From: Lachnoclostridium sp.
Lineage (GTDB): Bacteria; Bacillota; Clostridia; Lachnospirales; Lachnospiraceae
NCBI GenBank assembly: GCA_021770065.1
Contig: JAETRR010000012.1
Coordinates: forward strand, 207 to 64,206
DNA length: 64,000 bases
Direction of reading: 5' to 3'
Under the pieces are notes generated by a model. The model did not search any database, was not told the DNA's origin, and saw only the letters and a list, made by a program, of their open reading frames with translations. Position 1 is the first letter of the stretch, and every line of letters starts with the position of its first letter. Both the position numbers and the translations under genes were made by a program. This document shows, piece by piece, positions 3,654 to 61,592 of this stretch.

Positions 3654-4725
3654 TTTGCTTCTCCTTACCCGCTGTCCTGCTGATTAAACCCGAAAAAGTT
3701 TCCTCCCTTTCGTTCTTATTATAAAGGAGTTCCCCCGAAAGATCTACCACATATTTCACGTCTGCGAAGCCCACATGGTCGCCGGAGCGGATTCGTGCTT
3801 TTTCGTTTACTTCCAGGCGGCCGCCGTTTAGAAAGGTGCCGTTGGTGGAATTGAGATCGGTCAGATAATAAATGCCGTTTTCCTTTGAAATCTTTCCGTG
3901 AAAACGTGAAATTCCTCTTGCTTTGATGAAGCCGTCAACGACGTCCTTTTTCTTTCCAATCACAAATTGTTCCCCTGTGATTTCCATGCTTGGATAGGAA
4001 GGGTTCTCACTGCGCAGTACCAGACCCGGGGTTTTCTTTAAAAATGTGGTTTCACCTCTTTCACTGTGATGCTGCAAAGGCTCCATAACTGCCTGTATCT
4101 GTGCCGCCTGTACATCCGGCTCTGCTCCAGGCGCCTCTTTTACTTCTTCTGTCTCGTCCCCTGCTTCCTCTGTTTTTTCTTCCGGCTTCTTTGTACTCTT
4201 CCATTTTGTAAGGATCTGCTCTAAAGAAGTATTTTCCTCTCCTGCCATGCGGTAGAACTCATATCCCAGAGCTACAGCTCCCGGATCCTCTTTGTCAAGG
4301 CGGTCCAGGAGATATTCTGCCAGTTCCAAAAGTCCGCTTTTCATATCTCCCTCATAACAGGGAAACAGACAGAAGGAAAATTCCCATGTATCCGGATCCA
4401 GATAAATGTAATCCGGATCCAGCAGCAGCGCCCGGGTATCCAGCAGATATTCTTCGCAGCTTTCTGCCGTCCGAAGAAGCCCGTCAAGCAGAGCTTCTAA
4501 CTGAAAAACCGTCAGACGCCTGCGCTCCAGTACCAGGCAGAGATTCTGCCGGGAGGTAATTTCATAATAAAACGCCGCATCTTTGTCCATTCTGCTTAAG
4601 GTGCATTCCAAAAGGCCGGGAATTCTGTTTTTTATAAGCATGCCGGCCTGATAATTACTCTGAAATTCCTCCTGCTCCAATATCAGATAATTGTGATCGA
4701 GTTCTCTCTTATAAGACGTTTTCAT
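3643..4725 (-). CDS. FHA domain-containing protein, last gene of the Tad locus
   Basis: The C-terminal FHA signature is GISRFHGKISKENGIYYLTDLNSTNGTFLNGGRL. The N-terminal ~180 aa are of unknown function and are followed by an acidic linker. The stop overlaps the tatD start by 11 nt. Confidence 0.8.
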   Translation of the reverse strand: MKTSYKRELDHNYLILEQEEFQSNYQAGMLIKNRIPGLLECTLSRMDKDAAFYYEITSRQNLCLVLERRRLTVFQLEALLDGLLRTAESCEEYLLDTRALLLDPDYIYLDPDTWEFSFCLFPCYEGDMKSGLLELAEYLLDRLDKEDPGAVALGYEFYRMAGEENTSLEQILTKWKSTKKPEEKTEEAGDETEEVKEAPGAEPDVQAAQIQAVMEPLQHHSERGETTFLKKTPGLVLRSENPSYPSMEITGEQFVIGKKKDVVDGFIKARGISRFHGKISKENGIYYLTDLNSTNGTFLNGGRLEVNEKARIRSGDHVGFADVKYVVDLSGELLYNKNEREETFSGLISRTAGKEKQNDI

Positions 4726-15558: not shown

Positions 15559-15976
15559 TCTTGAATCCCTCTCTTTCTGTTACAAGTTTCCTCTGCACGG
15601 GCCTGTGTAATCAAGCAGGGAAGGCTCCTCTTCCCTGCTCGCCGCGCGGCCCGTGCGCCACTTTAGCGGCATACTTCCTCTGCACGGGCCTGTGCATAAA
15701 AAACCCGTCTTCTTTATCATCAAAGAAGACGGGCATATTCCCGTGTTACCACTTCCGTTCGTCTGCCTCTCGCGAAAACAGACCTCTGCGAGTACCTTCA
15801 TACTCTTCCGCTATAACAGGCGGAGTCCTGTCGCGGCTTATCGCTTGCATGCGTTCATCCGCGCCGCTCTGAAACCATCTTCAGCCAGCTTCTTTCCTTC
15901 CCTCTCAGCAACCGGGAATTCTCTGTAGAAAATCCATCAGGCCTACTCTTTTCTTCACTGCGTTTTCCTATTGCAT
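15559..15976 (-). promoter_or_regulatory. T-box leader of metG (promoter, stem I, T-box, terminator), plus an extra ~130-nt module
   Basis: The minus-strand promoter is TTGACA (16011..16006), 17 nt, TAGGAT (15988..15983). The T-box core GAAGTGGTAACACGGG maps to 15740..15756. The terminator CCCGTCTTCTTT/AAAGAAGACGGG plus a U-run maps to 15697..15733. An AUG is available in the CUGAAGAUGG segment as the Met specifier. Confidence 0.8.
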
Positions 15977-37344: not shown

Positions 37345-37544
37345 AGCGTTCTCCTGTCCGTTGTTCTCAACTTCTTTATCTTACTATAAAGTCCCGGGAA
37401 TTACTACCCGGTATGGCAATATTGTTTTGGAGATTATTCTGCGAAGGCAACAGTTCAGACGGCAGCGGCGCAGGCCGATGGGTTTTTCCATATCTGTGTC
37501 TGGCCGGTTCACGTACACGCTGTCTGAACTGCTGCATCGTGTGA

Positions 37545-37576
37545 TCAAAAAAGCAGGAGCTTTATCTGCTCCTGCT
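37545..37576 (-). terminator. intrinsic terminator after the C40 peptidase gene
   Basis: On the minus strand, AGCAGGAGC pairs with GCTCCTGCT around a 7-nt loop and is followed by TTTTTT. Confidence 0.75.
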
Positions 37577-37587
37577 CTCTTATTCTT

Positions 37588-38682
37588 TTAGAAAATTCTT
37601 CTTACTGCAAGAATGGGCTTGTAGTTTGCCGGTGAAGTATATTTGATTCCGGTGGCTGCCGTACTTGCATGTACGATGGTATTGTTGCCGCAGTAAATGC
37701 CGACATGGCCGCTGTAACAGATGATATCGCCCGGCTGTGCATCTGCAAGGCTCACACCGTATCCCACACCGCGCATTGCGCTGGATGAATGGGGAAGTCC
37801 TACGCCGAAGTTCGCATATACGCTCATTACGAATCCGGAGCAGTCCGCGCCGTTTGTAAGGCTGGTTCCGCCATATACATAAGGATTGCCGACAAACTGG
37901 CTTGCAAAAGATGCTACTGCATTTCCGCTGCTGCTTCCGCCGCCGTTGCCCAAAGCCGAATTCTGGCTGCCGGACTTGGCTGCCGCTGCTGCCGCCTTAC
38001 GCTTTCCTTCCTCTTTGGCTGCCTCTTCCTTGGCCAGTCTGGCCTCTTCCTCGGCCTTGGACTCTGCCTGGACGAAATCTGTCCGAAGGTCCACGAACTC
38101 TTTGGATACCCAGCCATCGCCTTCCTCTATGGATACCTGTACCCAATCGTCTGTCTCATCTGTTACCGTAAGCTCTTCCTCTTCTCCGATAAGACCTAAG
38201 ATACTGGACTCCGTACTGGCTTCACTTCTTACACGAAGGGTTTCCGTCGTAACGGTGGCAACTCTTTTTCCCACTTCCGCCGCCAAAGCTTCCGCTTCGT
38301 CGCCTGTAACTACATAATCACTCTTTACATATCCGGTTACGCTTCCGGAAGTAATCTTGAACCAGCCGTCCACATCCTCCTCTATGGTTCCTGCCGACTC
38401 GTCATAAAGCTTTCCAAGAATCTCGCCTTCCTCACTGGGCAGGCTTCTTACATTTACATAATCATTTACCTGTGCAATACAGATACCGTCAAATTCGGAA
38501 GGTGTCAATTCTTCTATCACCTTTTCATCTACGGCAGGGTCTGCTGTATGTGCTTCTGTCATTACGGATGCAATTCCTTCTTCTCCGAAAGCGGAAAGAT
38601 TGCTGGCTTCCGCCCTCAGTCCTCCAAAGCTGAAACAAAGCGCACCGGTCAGACATAGGGTTGTCAATTTATATACTCTCAT
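37588..38682 (-). CDS. secreted SH3b-repeat NlpC/P60 (C40) peptidoglycan peptidase
   Basis: It has a signal peptide, two SH3b-like repeats (VNVRSLPSEEGEILGKL and LRVRSEASTESSILGLI) and the C40 catalytic motif DCSGFV, followed by a downstream His (GHVGIY). Confidence 0.88.
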   Translation of the reverse strand: MRVYKLTTLCLTGALCFSFGGLRAEASNLSAFGEEGIASVMTEAHTADPAVDEKVIEELTPSEFDGICIAQVNDYVNVRSLPSEEGEILGKLYDESAGTIEEDVDGWFKITSGSVTGYVKSDYVVTGDEAEALAAEVGKRVATVTTETLRVRSEASTESSILGLIGEEEELTVTDETDDWVQVSIEEGDGWVSKEFVDLRTDFVQAESKAEEEARLAKEEAAKEEGKRKAAAAAAKSGSQNSALGNGGGSSSGNAVASFASQFVGNPYVYGGTSLTNGADCSGFVMSVYANFGVGLPHSSSAMRGVGYGVSLADAQPGDIICYSGHVGIYCGNNTIVHASTAATGIKYTSPANYKPILAVRRIF

Positions 38683-40718: not shown

Positions 40719-41585
40719 TCAGACCAAAATTTTTTTATAAAGCTCTAAGTCATTGTCTTTAAAGACATTAAAAATGATCCGTTCCATACAATCGCCATGC
40801 TTTTCCAGGAAAGCCGTTACCGTTTTCCATGCGATTTCCGCCGCCTTATCATTTGGAAAATGAAATTCCCCCGTTGAAATACAACAGAACGCAACAGATC
40901 TGATATCATGTTCCAGGCAGCATTGCAGGACATTTTCATAACAATTTTGCAAATCCCGGCAGAGCATATCATTCAGCCGGCCGTATACAATCGGCCCCAC
41001 TGTGTGAATCACATAATTGCAGGGAAGATTATAGGCTTTTGTTAAAGTAGCCGTGCCTGTCGGCTCTTCGTAGTTCCTGCCATATTTCTGCCGCCTCCGG
41101 CTCATAATACGGCTGCATTCTTCTCTAAGCTGCATTCCCGCCGCACTGTGAATGGCATTGTCAATGCACCTGTGGCAGGGTACAAAGCAGCCCAGCAGCT
41201 GTGAATTAGCGGCATTTACAATGGCACCGGCCTCAAGTCTCGTTATATCTCCCTGCCAAAGTGATATTTTCCTCCCATAAGGAGACTTACTGTTAAATGC
41301 TTCCTTTATTGTCGGAATATCCGCCAGTTTTACGATTCCCTTTGCTTCCCGCTCATCCTGCAGATATTCGTCCTGTAAATCCGTCAATTCATCGGGAAGC
41401 TCTCTCGGCATACGGATATTCATAAGAGAACGGATTGCATTTTTCTTTTCCTCTAAACTGTATTCCCCGGTTTCAAGTTCTTTGTATTCCACCGAGTCTG
41501 CTTTTAATTTTTCCAGAAGAACCTCTGTCTTTTCTGCTCTATTCATTGCTGCCACCATACTTTCCTCATATAATGTCCCGGTCAT
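40719..41585 (-). CDS. macrodomain protein (ADP-ribose hydrolase, SirTM-linked zinc-macro type)
   Basis: ISLWQGDITRLEAGAIVNAANSQLLGCFVPCHRCIDNAIHSAAG is the macro fold, with the C-x-H-x-C zinc motif that I recall from staphylococcal SirTM-linked macrodomains. There is a ~110-aa helical N-extension. Confidence 0.85.
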   Translation of the reverse strand: MTGTLYEESMVAAMNRAEKTEVLLEKLKADSVEYKELETGEYSLEEKKNAIRSLMNIRMPRELPDELTDLQDEYLQDEREAKGIVKLADIPTIKEAFNSKSPYGRKISLWQGDITRLEAGAIVNAANSQLLGCFVPCHRCIDNAIHSAAGMQLREECSRIMSRRRQKYGRNYEEPTGTATLTKAYNLPCNYVIHTVGPIVYGRLNDMLCRDLQNCYENVLQCCLEHDIRSVAFCCISTGEFHFPNDKAAEIAWKTVTAFLEKHGDCMERIIFNVFKDNDLELYKKILV

Positions 41586-41655
41586 TCCTTCAGCTCTACG
41601 GTTTCACTTTCCTGAAAAAGCATAATGCCATCTCCTTTACCTATTCGCCGGGCTT

Positions 41656-41684
41656 ATTATATCAAATCGGGTCAATCGGGTCAA
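41656..41684 (-). promoter_or_regulatory. near-consensus sigma-A promoter for the macro/NTase genes
   Basis: Minus strand reads TTGACC (41684..41679), a 17-nt spacer, then TATAAT (41661..41656). It is embedded in four GGTCA/TGACC half-sites. Confidence 0.65.
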
Positions 41685-41816
41685 TGCGCATGACACGATT
41701 GTGACCTAATCCTGATTTGACCTGATATTTTCATTATGCTCGCAAATGAGGGCGAGTATTAACATCAAAAGCCGTCCTCTCTGAAAACCAGCCAGTAAGC
41801 ACATAAATCTGCTGTC

Positions 41817-42740
41817 TTATAATTGTTTCAGTATCTCTCCAATGTCTGCATTGATACAGACGGAGCGCTTTGCAATTTTCTCGGGTACATAGGCTTCCCC
41901 ATAATTGATACAGACATAAACTGCCTTCGGATTCGCTGCCGTCATCTGCCAGAACGGATATTTTATAATCCCGGGTGTATTAAACCCGACACCGAGTTCC
42001 AGCAGAACGGCCTTTTTCTGCTCCGTTTTTTTCAGAAAATTGTTATATCGTCCTGCTGCCTCATGCCAGTTTTCATCTTCCACAAAATACTGATCACAGC
42101 GAAGGTGCATTGTCATATTGCCGCCGCATACGGGACATTTCGGCACCATATAAGAAGGCACCAGACAGTCATGCCTCGCCCGATCCATCCGGCGGAATAA
42201 ATCCTCTGCATCATAAATCTTCGGATGACACCCCTTTTCACATTGAATATTACCGTAATCTCCCTGTGTTGCAAAAATACGCTCCGTCCGAAACCCGGCT
42301 TTTTGAAACTGGTGATCAACATTCGTTGTTAAAACAAAATACTCTTTTTCTTTTACAATTTCATAAAGCCGATGATATAAAGGCAGTGCAGGCGGAAGGA
42401 AACGGTTTATCATGCTGTGTTTTGACCAGTAACCCCATTTTGCCTCCTGTGTGGGAAACGGATAAAAACCCGCCGCATACATATCCGTCATATACGCAGT
42501 ACCATATTTTTCTATAAACTCACCAAAGTTACGGGTAAACCGTTCCCCGCTATAAGTAAGTCCGGCAGCAGCAGACATTCCTGCCCCTGCACCAATCAGT
42601 ATGATATCAGCCGCCTTTATCAGCGCGGACACATGTTCCATCTGCTCCGCATATGGAATATTTTGAAAAATGTAATCTCCGGCAGGCACACCGTTTAAAA
42701 TCCGCGAACCATTAATTCTCTTTTTCTGACTCTGCTTCAT
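41817..42740 (-). CDS. SIR2 family protein, class M (SirTM-like NAD-dependent ADP-ribosyltransferase)
   Basis: Contains the Rossmann motif GAGAGMSAAAG and TTNVDHQF. ATQGDY stands where canonical sirtuins have the catalytic HG. The zinc ribbon is CEKGC...CPVCGG. Confidence 0.8.
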   Translation of the reverse strand: MKQSQKKRINGSRILNGVPAGDYIFQNIPYAEQMEHVSALIKAADIILIGAGAGMSAAAGLTYSGERFTRNFGEFIEKYGTAYMTDMYAAGFYPFPTQEAKWGYWSKHSMINRFLPPALPLYHRLYEIVKEKEYFVLTTNVDHQFQKAGFRTERIFATQGDYGNIQCEKGCHPKIYDAEDLFRRMDRARHDCLVPSYMVPKCPVCGGNMTMHLRCDQYFVEDENWHEAAGRYNNFLKKTEQKKAVLLELGVGFNTPGIIKYPFWQMTAANPKAVYVCINYGEAYVPEKIAKRSVCINADIGEILKQL

Positions 42741-43093: not shown

Positions 43094-43762
43094 ATGAAGT
43101 TTGAATTTCAAATCAAAGATCCCGGCAGCGCCATCACTCATTTTATCGGCATGCTCATGGCCGCATTTGCCGCAACCCCCTTACTGATCCGTGCTGCCAG
43201 GCAGCCGGATACCATCCATCTAATCTCACTGGCCATTTTTATCGGAAGCATGATCCTGCTTTACGGAGCCAGTACCACCTACCACACCCTGAACCTTTCC
43301 GAGCGTTCCAACCGAATTCTCCGAAAGATCGATCACATGATGATATTCATCCTCATCGCAGGTTCCTACACCCCCGTATGTCTGATCGTACTGGGCGGCA
43401 GAACCGGCTACAGCCTGTGCGCGCTCGTATGGGGCATCGCACTGGCCGGAATCCTGATAAAAGCATTCTGGATCACCTGCCCGAAATGGTTCTCATCCAC
43501 ACTATACATTGCCATGGGCTGGGTCTGCGTGCTGGCCTTCACCCAGATCCTCAACTCCCTCTCTCCTGCCGCTTTCGGATGGCTTCTGGCCGGCGGAATC
43601 ATCTACACCATAGGCGGCATCATCTACGCACTGAAGCTTCCCCTCTTCAATGCACGCCACAAGTACTTCGGTTCCCACGAGATCTTCCACCTCTTCGTCA
43701 TGGGCGGAAGCATCTGCCACTTCATTATGATGTACGTATTCGTAGCCCCCATGCCAATCTAA
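43094..43762 (+). CDS. hemolysin III / PAQR family membrane protein
   Basis: A 7-TM protein containing SAITHFIG, STTYH and the C-terminal HEIFHLFV motif. The promoter TTGACA...TGGTATAAT lies upstream. Confidence 0.88.
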   Translation: MKFEFQIKDPGSAITHFIGMLMAAFAATPLLIRAARQPDTIHLISLAIFIGSMILLYGASTTYHTLNLSERSNRILRKIDHMMIFILIAGSYTPVCLIVLGGRTGYSLCALVWGIALAGILIKAFWITCPKWFSSTLYIAMGWVCVLAFTQILNSLSPAAFGWLLAGGIIYTIGGIIYALKLPLFNARHKYFGSHEIFHLFVMGGSICHFIMMYVFVAPMPI

Positions 43763-43938
43763 TTCAGCGTCCTAAACCAAACAGCATTCGACGTAATTGC
43801 TTCTGTTATTTATCAAATGCTATACCAGCACATCATAACCAATTGCCAAAAACAATAAAACCCCTTATAATAAAAGAACCTTCCCAATTTTAAACAGGAA
43901 GGTTCTTTCACAAAATAACCCTCACACCCCCAAAACCA

Positions 43939-44196
43939 GGTCCGGCCGTGAAAGAAGCCGGCATGCTTTTCCGATATCAAGTGTCCAGCTGTTCGCGTAC
44001 ATCCTGTCTGATATGGACGAACATTGTCCAAGATATCTTCTGATTTGCAGATACATTCATAGAGCAATGTTCGTACAGAGCAGACAGGGTGTACGAGAAC
44101 CGTCCGAACCGTTGTGATAAGGAGGGACCCACAAAGTGGGAGGATTCCTTATTGCTGGATATGGAAAAGCATGCCGGCTTCTTTCACGGCCGGACC
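43939..44196 (+). other. 258-nt element bounded by perfect 34-bp inverted repeats; candidate structured RNA or MITE-like/invertible element
   Basis: 43939..43972 is the exact reverse complement of 44163..44196. Nested internal helices pair 43996..44010 with 44081..44095, 44017..44026 with 44065..44074, and 44117..44123 with 44146..44152. Confidence 0.6.
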
Positions 44197-44222
44197 GTCC
44201 CCCCAGGAAGCAAAATTCTCCC

Positions 44223-44504
44223 ATGAAAGCATACACCTACATCCTAAAATGCTCCGACAACACCCTCTACACCGGCTGGACCACAGATCTCCCCAAACGC
44301 CTGAAATCCCACAACCAGGGCAAAGGCGCCAAATACACCCGTTCCCGCCTCCCGGTAACCCTTATCTATTACGAAACCTTCGAAACCAAACAAGAAGCCA
44401 TGTCCCGGGAAGCCGCCATCAAAAAACTAAGCCGCCCCCAAAAGGAACGGCTTATCAGTTCAAAAAACCACGACTATCAAAACACTACTGCAGCAAAGTC
44501 ATAG
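44223..44504 (+). CDS. GIY-YIG nuclease family protein (YazA/UPF0213-like)
   Basis: The protein begins [39 protein letters not shown], so GIY-YIG core motifs are present. The ATG is at 44223. Confidence 0.88.
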
Positions 44505-61423: not shown

Positions 61424-61481
61424 GTCGCTATAGCTCAGCCGGATAAAGCGACCGCTTCCTAAGCGGTAGATGGTTCGAGTC
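61424..61481 (+). pseudogene. 3'-truncated tRNA-Arg(CCU)-like fragment
   Basis: GTCGCTA-TA-GCTC...ACCGC-TTCCTAA-GCGGT-AGATG-GTTCGAGTC has an acceptor 5' half, a D arm, an intact anticodon arm (CCT) and the start of the T arm. There is no 3' T-stem and no acceptor complement. Confidence 0.55.
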
Positions 61482-61515
61482 TAAATTAGGAATACAAGTT
61501 CATATTTTTACAGAT

Positions 61516-61592
61516 GTCCACGTAGCTCAGCTGGATAGAGCACACGCCTCCTAAGCGTGGGGTCGGAGGTTCAAATCCTCTCGTGGACGCCA
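61516..61592 (+). tRNA. tRNA-Arg (anticodon CCU), CCA encoded
   Basis: GTCCACG-TA-GCTC-AGCTGGATA-GAGC-A-CACGC-CTCCTAA-GCGTG-GGGTC-GGAGG-TTCAAAT-CCTCT-CGTGGAC-GCCA forms a full cloverleaf. Confidence 0.92.

Follow-up and report, generated by a model that had tools for sequence, protein, structure and literature searches.

Which role a long perfect palindrome can play directly in front of a small nuclease gene is the question raised by the locus studied here. The window, i.e. the whole 64,000-nt stretch of DNA that was analyzed (Lachnoclostridium sp., contig JAETRR010000012.1), contains at positions 43939-44196 an element of 258 nt closed by 34-bp inverted repeats and followed by a gene of the GIY-YIG nuclease family. 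A preliminary description, made from the sequence alone, had seen in it a structured RNA, and had also considered a MITE, short for miniature inverted-repeat transposable element, and an invertible DNA switch. Alignment with homologous copies places the element in a dispersed family of palindromic repeats that conserve their structure. We consider it likely that it is a copy of a previously unnamed interspersed palindromic repeat family of mouse-gut Lachnospiraceae, akin to MITEs, to REPINs (doublets of repetitive extragenic palindromic, REP, units forming hairpins) and to bcr1 repeats, and that this copy is passively carried in the 5' leader of the GIY-YIG gene.

Structure of the element

The element and its two tails are made up of the following parts:

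43927..43938, + strand: conserved C/A-rich left tail CCCCCAAAACCA, not complementary to the right tail (flank information profile, alignment)
43939..43972, + strand: left arm of the outer stem, a 34-nt inverted repeat; fast-evolving, always-paired part of the repeat family (columns 33-64 of the family alignment)
43973..44026, + strand: left half of the conserved core, GATATC..GTGTCCAGCTGTTCGCGTACA..CTGTCTGATATGGACGAACATTG; majority-base frequency about 0.88 over 35 copies
44027..44064, + strand: variable apical region; majority-base frequency 0.58
44065..44109, + strand: right half of the conserved core, with the 32-nt motif GAGCAGACAGnnTGTnCGnGAACCGTCCGAAC at 44078-44109
44110..44157, + strand: optional 48-nt hairpin module (the third hairpin), GATAAGGAGGGACCCACAAAGTGGGAGGATTCCTTAT; lacking in the closest relative and in most family members
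44163..44196, + strand: right arm of the outer stem, inverted-repeat partner of the left arm
44197..44204, + strand: conserved right tail GTCCCCCC, family consensus GTCCGTCC (flank listing, alignment)

The two arms are 100% complementary over their 34 nt and lie 190 nt apart. Even at 3 mismatches the 34-mer has only two sites in the window, both in the element, and none was obtained in 100 shuffles; no inverted repeat within 1.5 kb in the window exceeds this arm length. The plus-strand minimum free energy fold combines the outer stem with a long hairpin inside it (36-nt arms at 43991-44026 and 44065-44100, complementarity 86%) and with a small third hairpin, in which ATAAGGA...TCCTTAT encloses CCCAC-AAA-GTGGG. 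Its energy is -152.7 kcal/mol, against -73.2 +/- 4.8 kcal/mol for shuffled sequences (z = -16.6). The minus strand folds almost equally well (z = -16.5), as expected because the element is a near-palindrome. A single U-G pair is visible in the 15-bp helix. The interior contains no plausible gene open reading frame (ORF), and no promoter-like site was found between 43973 and 44162. The exact repeat, the strongly structured unit of nested helices and the lack of an internal promoter, all three of which figure in the preliminary description, were thus confirmed.

A dispersed repeat family

The distribution of the element beyond the window depends on the probe that is used. An exact 25-mer of the window's inverted repeat has no match in metagenome contigs and none in one-genome-per-species contigs; as the outer stem is copy-specific, this was the wrong probe, and the conserved core is the right one. 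With the 32-nt core motif GAGCAGACAGnnTGTnCGnGAACCGTCCGAAC, 28 bases of which are specified, 83 metagenome stretches were recovered. Three of the 83 adjoin a GIY-YIG gene and represent the orthologous locus; the 80 others do not. A search of the flanks with a family profile added 10 more copies. Several copies share a contig; OFFF01000004.1 (145 kb) carries four mutually diverged ones. The window itself holds a second, truncated copy:

~37446..37535, - strand: limited to the right core plus the right arm (nhmmer search using the family profile, E = 4.2e-12)

This half copy follows closely downstream of the intrinsic terminator (37551-37578) belonging to the gene at 37588-38682 (- strand), and argues against the motif being confined to the GIY-YIG locus. 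The neighbours of nine copies, identified by reading translations by eye without a domain library, are unrelated housekeeping-like ORFs, e.g. ThiI-, FtsY-, RecJ-, chemoreceptor- and 6-phospho-beta-glucosidase-like. No match was obtained in a plasmid collection (blastn) or in viral contigs (core motif).

The proposal of a single-locus structured RNA tied to the GIY-YIG gene therefore has to be abandoned, with 80 stretches located elsewhere and a half copy in the window itself. The MITE-like alternative turns out to be essentially right, although the copies are diverged, not young and identical. Likewise, the combination that was to reveal a simple MITE, i.e. absence from syntenic relatives and many dispersed identical copies, is found in substance except that the copies are not identical.

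The family matches no known RNA class, and the preliminary description had not been able to place the element in one either. At the gathering score, Rfam 15, which includes models for 6S RNA, riboswitches, ribozymes and group II introns, reports for the window only a T-box and three tRNAs, all located elsewhere (see below); in the element region at E <= 10 it gives only generic long-hairpin miRNA models far below threshold; and the loci of 14 other family copies, scanned whole at the gathering score, give no match. The searchable literature contains no description of the family, either by topic or by core 13-mers.

Two further observations concern the arrangement of copies. In L094 (~4230-4560) and in L164 (loci and contigs are designated by such L numbers), a full copy is nested within the arms of a second, otherwise empty copy; this second layer of complementary arms (~45 bp) likewise ends in TTTCCAATATC / GATATTGGAAA. 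In L099, L108, L113, L158 and L101, the left arm of one copy is associated with the right arm of another, reflecting either assembly chimeras or real recombination.

Anatomy and covariation

Family figures are based on the alignment of 35 distinct copies and on a consensus structure of 71 pairs. A typical member measures 205-220 nt, or about 250-260 nt with an extra hairpin module. From left to right, a copy consists of a C/A-rich tail, an outer stem of about 34 bp, a central helix of about 23 bp that hardly varies, an apical stem with a variable A/C-rich loop, and a GTCCGTCC-like right tail. In one subfamily of the alignment the mini-hairpin CAGGCGAAGCCTG replaces the apical region. The third hairpin is present in a minority of copies, among them L146, L155, L159 and L168, and shows compensatory changes of its own (CCCAC/GTGGG versus CCCGC/GCGGG).

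The structure is conserved much more strictly than the sequence. Standard pairs occupy 96.7% of the cells, compared with 81.5% after shuffling and 32-44% when partners are slid. Cells changed on both sides number 326, versus 76 in shuffles, and compensatory changes occur in 37 of the 71 pairs. They are unevenly distributed: 25 of 36 pairs covary in the outer stem (helix 1) and 9 of 11 in the apical stem, and in the central helix (helix 3) 14 of 23 pairs are invariant. The arms of the outer stem are 92% complementary inside one copy and 56% identical between copies; most are about 34 bp long, and many copies present arm mismatches.

The two tails differ from each other (..CCAAAAnCA on the left, GTCCGTCC on the right; flanks of 34 copies). 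Relative to them, the interior is oriented in one and the same way in each of the 34 distinct copies for which flanks are available, and the complement of the right tail is never found on the left. The right end is close to a gene boundary (median distance 11 nt), which is often a convergent gene's stop codon; for the left end the median is 145 nt.

This constant orientation bears directly on the invertible switch, in which expression of the downstream gene would change as a trans-acting recombinase turns the 190-bp interior around. Perfect 34-bp inverted repeats around a short segment of 5' untranslated region (UTR) would suit such a device. However, one interior orientation only was observed, both in the 34 distinct copies and, relative to asymmetric flanks, in the 6 assemblies of the orthologous locus; the interior is devoid of a promoter-like site and, being near-palindromic, would be little changed by a flip; and the arms of many copies contain mismatches. 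We consider an inversion highly improbable. All eight Logan contigs with the identical HlyIII gene (L001-L008) end 30 nt into the left arm, at window position 43968. These stops could be counted in favour of a switch but are uninformative, as a perfect inverted repeat longer than k = 31 is expected to break a short-read assembly graph; this repeat explains why graph assemblies of the window species are interrupted here.

The GIY-YIG locus

The surroundings of the element were analyzed by comparing 80 loci from Lachnospiraceae genomes, mostly from mouse gut, fetched via the upstream HlyIII protein. Besides the element, the locus contains in the window:

43843..43871, + strand: sigma-70-type promoter TTGCCA-17-TATAAT of the GIY-YIG gene, 11/12 consensus positions; part of the locus, not of the repeat
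43873..43908, no strand assigned: 12-bp hairpin AAAGAACCTTCC/GGAAGGTTCTTT right behind the -10 box; lacking in L089
44225..44504, + strand: small stand-alone GIY-YIG nuclease gene, 93 aa, downstream neighbour of the element (Pfam PF01541, E = 2.3e-22)

The co-oriented GIY-YIG gene noticed at the outset is therefore real: its ATG (44225) follows the end of the element after a spacer of 28 nt. An exact-sequence look-up of the 93-aa product returned no record. The promoter lies 67 nt upstream of the element, and both hexamers are kept, with a variable spacer, in the window and in L009, L012, L014 and L017. Among 38 copies scanned, an 11/12 promoter within 200 nt upstream is present in only the 7 GIY-locus copies; the L124 copy has a weaker match (10/12). 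Given this conserved upstream promoter, the element, which has the same orientation as the GIY-YIG gene, is very probably co-transcribed with it as part of its 5' UTR. The hairpin at 43873-43908 looks bidirectional and is probably the HlyIII terminator. The centroid fold predicted for the complete leader leaves both the Shine-Dalgarno sequence and the ATG unpaired. Behind the stem, the plus strand lacks a U-tract and the minus strand has only a weak one.

Gene callers lengthen the GIY-YIG protein to 122 aa (P0001), from an in-frame GTG. This extension is probably an annotation artefact because the 48-nt module is absent in L089, so that the extension is not conserved. The module places a perfect AAGGAGG 7-8 nt before this GTG (window 44136-44504). 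At its 3' end, the GIY-YIG gene overlaps a convergent M23-peptidase ORF by 20 nt (44485-44504), and a hairpin followed by a T-run, resembling a terminator (44428-44454, - strand), is found inside its 3' coding end, where it is placed to serve the M23-peptidase/SpoIID genes. In the low-coverage contig L089 (~944-946) the GIY-YIG start reads AGG instead of ATG, which may reflect a sequencing error or else a start that has been disabled.

Inheritance and loss in relatives

The HlyIII and GIY-YIG genes are adjacent in 47 of the 80 loci. A homologous element is present between them in L012, L014 and L017 (about 78% identical). Two more contigs, L089 (98% protein identity) and L091, were found by way of GIY-YIG homologues and also have one there. 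L089, the closest relative, differs from the window essentially by lacking only the 48 nt at 44110-44157 and the hairpin 43873-43908. The third hairpin is missing from all five of these copies; the three-way junction of the preliminary description accordingly holds for the minimum free energy fold of the window copy and not as a general feature of the family, since this hairpin occurs in a minority of copies. Among the orthologous copies of the GIY locus, compensatory changes affect 19 of 77 pairs.

In other relatives the element is reduced or absent. In strain L090 (96% protein identity), a deletion of 233 nt between two AAAA runs leaves only the right arm, 44169-44196. L009 (97% HlyIII identity) has kept the promoter, but of the element its spacer holds only a remnant, AGTCTGCCGGCTTATTTTT, whose 19 nt match the right arm of family member L173 exactly. 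The spacers of L010 and L013 (19 and ~40 nt) contain no element. From these comparisons, the copy in the GIY-YIG leader is old and occupies this site in at least five lineages: it entered in an ancestor that the window species shares with the L009, L012, L014 and L017 species, and has since been inherited, reshaped by compensatory changes and repeatedly lost. Since natural alleles without the element exist, it would be dispensable at this locus. In L011 (6660-6790), the HlyIII/GIY-YIG spacer is instead occupied by two tandem copies of a 51-nt unit, TTAAGGTATACCCAGAGGGCACACCGTATTTAAGAACGCTTCGCGTTGTAAGA.

These data can be confronted with the idea that the element is a leader RNA dedicated to regulating the GIY-YIG gene in cis, in the form of a three-way junction that acts like a riboswitch or binds a protein. 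Position argues for it, as the element lies on the same strand between a conserved promoter and the ORF, and so does an analogy with more distant Lachnospiraceae: there the COG2827 RNA of Rfam (RF02938, 52.6-66 bits) is located directly upstream of the orthologous GIY-YIG gene, which is on the other strand, suggesting that this gene family tends toward structured leaders. In three loci it has the following coordinates:

L065:6982-7057, - strand: COG2827 RNA
L080:6986-7062, - strand: COG2827 RNA
L071:7843-7928, - strand: COG2827 RNA

It is also found in L053, L061, L067, L074, L075, L079 and L081; in L071 and L075 an extra closing helix of at least 13 bp encloses it. The window and its closest relatives lack this RNA: the 43700-44500 region gives no COG2827 RNA match even at E <= 10 (gathering threshold 49.1 bits). 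The idea is moreover largely refuted by the 80 of 83 copies found away from a GIY-YIG gene. In the closest relative there is no third hairpin and therefore no junction; L090 and L009 have retained promoter and gene despite deletion of the element; and the predicted fold does not sequester the ribosome-binding site. A dedicated leader RNA is thus very unlikely. Homology of the element to the COG2827 RNA was also dropped, the two sharing only a vague similarity by eye and no covariance-model match. A GA-cis RNA (RF02987, 51 bits) was noted in a related locus (L043:492-576, - strand).

The strand of the gene suggested one more origin for the palindrome. In most of the 47 loci the GIY-YIG gene is opposite in strand to HlyIII, and the two share a strand only in the clade of the window and in a few others; compared with loci L015-L088, a segment of about 300-400 bp with the GIY-YIG gene alone seems inverted in this clade. 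The element, which is at one junction, might then be a by-product (fold-back or inverted duplication) of the inversion that turned the gene round. The presence of the same sequence family at dozens of unrelated loci refutes this scenario, to which we attach almost no probability.

Strand bias and selection

Counted over the cells of consensus pairs, the plus strand shows 50 G-U versus 21 A-C combinations; 20 copies are richer in G-U and 3 show the reverse. A cruder half-versus-half comparison had suggested an A-C excess, which was an artefact of the A/C-rich loops and was reversed when only consensus pairs were counted. The U-G pair of the 15-bp helix had been taken to favour a plus-strand RNA co-oriented with the GIY-YIG gene. 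Statistically the plus-strand preference stands, but its link with this gene does not: the bias is equally strong (24 versus 10) in copies directly behind opposite-strand genes, and is therefore a property of the element that gives no evidence on the GIY-YIG mRNA. It could result from the plus strand folding, either as single-stranded DNA or as RNA, in the course of propagation, from inheritance from master copies, or from a mutational bias. The flanks are asymmetrical as well. Over 100 nt, those of every copy are very poor in G on the plus strand (GC skew -0.35 to -0.78; e.g. window 43840-43938), so that G-runs on the other strand could form G-quadruplexes, and in 21 of 26 loci it is also the plus strand that is rich in C over several kilobases.

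Such regularities raise the possibility that the family is a functional RNA module exploited by the host: a long UTR hairpin, placed immediately behind stop codons or immediately before ribosome-binding sites, that would stabilize, terminate or process transcripts, with each copy kept by selection. The very strong covariation, orthologous copies included, the one-strand G-U excess, the unequal distances of the two ends from gene boundaries, the conservation of certain loci across species (L126/L144 and the GIY locus) and the covariation of the optional hairpin modules themselves are all arguments for selection. However, it is the helices that hold the conserved residues, with variable loops, contrary to what most functional RNAs show; the G-U bias affects one strand of the element whichever strand the neighbouring gene would transcribe; and close relatives lose copies without replacement. 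The weakness or absence of U-tracts described above and the lack of a promoter belonging to the family also count against it. We regard a host module as unlikely. An independent small-RNA gene was rejected, for want of a family-wide promoter and of a plus-strand U-tract behind the stem.

How the family may spread and act

We therefore return to the interspersed repeat, passively carried, as the preferred explanation. Under this explanation the family would spread, or would once have spread, by a hairpin-dependent, non-autonomous mechanism comparable to that of MITEs, REPINs and bcr repeats. The copy studied here would be passively transcribed from the conserved GIY-YIG promoter within a 5' UTR of about 350 nt, and would form a very long double-stranded RNA hairpin leaving the ribosome-binding site free. 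Its likeliest effect would concern the processing or stability of the GIY-YIG mRNA, e.g. as a substrate of RNase III, rather than a signal-sensing switch. Such an effect is plausible because the Shine-Dalgarno sequence and the start codon are unpaired and no U-tract follows the stem. Perfect double-stranded RNA of at least 34 bp is a textbook substrate of RNase III.

Several points weigh against this explanation. No target-site duplication was found at 34 copies, in agreement with what had been noted for the window copy. No transposase or other mobilizing gene was seen in about 600 kb of partly inspected flanks, among the ORFs beside and between copies. The fetched loci include no empty site, and the polymorphisms observed are deletions that leave one arm (L090, L009); as no filled-versus-empty pair was seen besides the L090 deletion, mobility is deduced from the dispersed distribution alone. 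Copies of a same genome are strongly diverged instead of near-identical, and conservation is lowest at the termini, contrary to what an ordinary MITE driven by a transposase would show. The strong conservation of pairing at orthologous loci and the one-strand G-U excess might point to a host function for which every copy is selected. Finally, transcription, cleavage by RNase III and any effect on GIY-YIG expression are predictions.

In a more novel reading, the family would not be just a decaying MITE but a hairpin-dependent element of a new kind: its plus strand would have to adopt a fold, as single-stranded DNA or as RNA, in the course of its life cycle, an as yet unknown protein would recognize its invariant 23-bp helix, and it would insert at gene ends without target-site duplication. 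We hold this to be rather unlikely. By analogy with the REP-associated tyrosine transposase (RAYT) of REPINs, the small GIY-YIG nuclease, with a copy maintained 5' of its gene in several species, could conceivably be the partner of such an element. More generally, several peculiarities of the family leave a new mobilization or RNA mechanism open as a minority possibility: a centre that does not vary, ends that vary freely yet stay paired, a G-U bias on one strand, positions next to gene ends, and the absence of target-site duplication. Retrons, integron attC sites, parS sites and domain V of group II introns were dropped for want of their defining partners or motifs, Rfam being the only formal check.

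For the window, these results remove a candidate "new riboregulator". For mouse-gut Lachnospiraceae, they document an apparently undescribed interspersed repeat family with an unusual pattern: clean covariation, an invariant centre, and ends that are free to vary but stay paired. Such repeats fragment metagenome assemblies and create chimeric contigs (the chimeric arms of L099, L108, L113 and L158), seed deletions and rearrangements, and can affect how neighbouring genes are expressed. Should a mechanism underlie the one-strand G-U bias and the position at gene ends, the family could lead to a new mobilization system in Firmicutes.

Other features of the window

The structured RNAs detected by Rfam in the window are ordinary and unrelated to the element:

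15722-15967, - strand: T-box leader (109.9 bits)
172-260, - strand: tRNA gene
61424-61494, + strand: tRNA gene
61516-61589, + strand: tRNA gene

At 40719-42740 (- strand), the adjacent genes of a Macro-domain protein (288 aa) and of a weakly SIR2-like protein (307 aa) are reminiscent of ADP-ribosylation systems.

Comparison with known systems

Bacterial MITE-like repeats fold into long RNA stem-loops when they are co-transcribed (PMC3184786). The closest parallel is provided by the bcr repeats of the Bacillus cereus group, in particular bcr1 (~155 nt), which are likewise interspersed, intergenic and non-coding in Firmicutes (PMC3184786). bcr1 is transcribed and keeps its structure by compensatory changes (PMC3184786); co-transcription with neighbouring genes, predicted only in the present case, a stable predicted RNA structure maintained in this way, and repeated loss of structure or copies between close strains are common to both (PMC3184786). 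The differences are that bcr1 is flanked by 5-bp direct repeats, which were not found at the present family, that it forms a cruciform-like pair of stem-loops instead of one hairpin of about 100 bp, and that it belongs to another host clade and has no sequence similarity with the present family.

REPINs consist of two REP units of 20-40 nt, about 70-110 nt in total, are mostly proteobacterial, and are defined by a flanking RAYT gene. According to Bertels and Rainey (2011), REPIN/REP sequences are reportedly mobilized by RAYT transposases, of the Y1 HUH type. REPINs share with the present family many diverged, long hairpin-forming extragenic palindromes with no known target-site duplication, often located right after stop codons; in both, the hairpin rather than the terminal sequence seems to be conserved, and here too one copy adjoins a small nuclease gene. 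However, this GIY-YIG neighbour is a housekeeping-type protein, far more widespread than the repeat. No RAYT-like ORF was seen among the ORFs examined beside and between copies, and no search aimed at RAYT was made.

Classical MITEs (Correia/NEMIS, ERIC, RUP, Tn3-derived TIMEs) resemble the family by their terminal inverted repeats, a size of about 100-400 bp, the lack of a transposase, and their multi-copy, intergenic occurrence; terminal inverted repeats and many dispersed copies are indeed what the family displays. Unlike MITEs, which have target-site duplications and conserved termini matching a parent insertion sequence, it shows no such duplication and varies most at its termini, and the ORFs inspected beside and between copies, the plasmid collection and the viral contigs revealed no parent element. 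The consensus of its outer arms, GGGTCTGCCGC, may resemble the start of Tn3-family inverted repeats.

The COG2827 RNA (RF02938), finally, is similar in being a structured element immediately upstream of the same GIY-YIG family (COG2827), in related Lachnospiraceae. It is distinct in its 77 nt, its two small hairpins, its conserved single-stranded flanks and its association with the gene, whereas the present element, without detectable homology to it, is a dispersed repeat.

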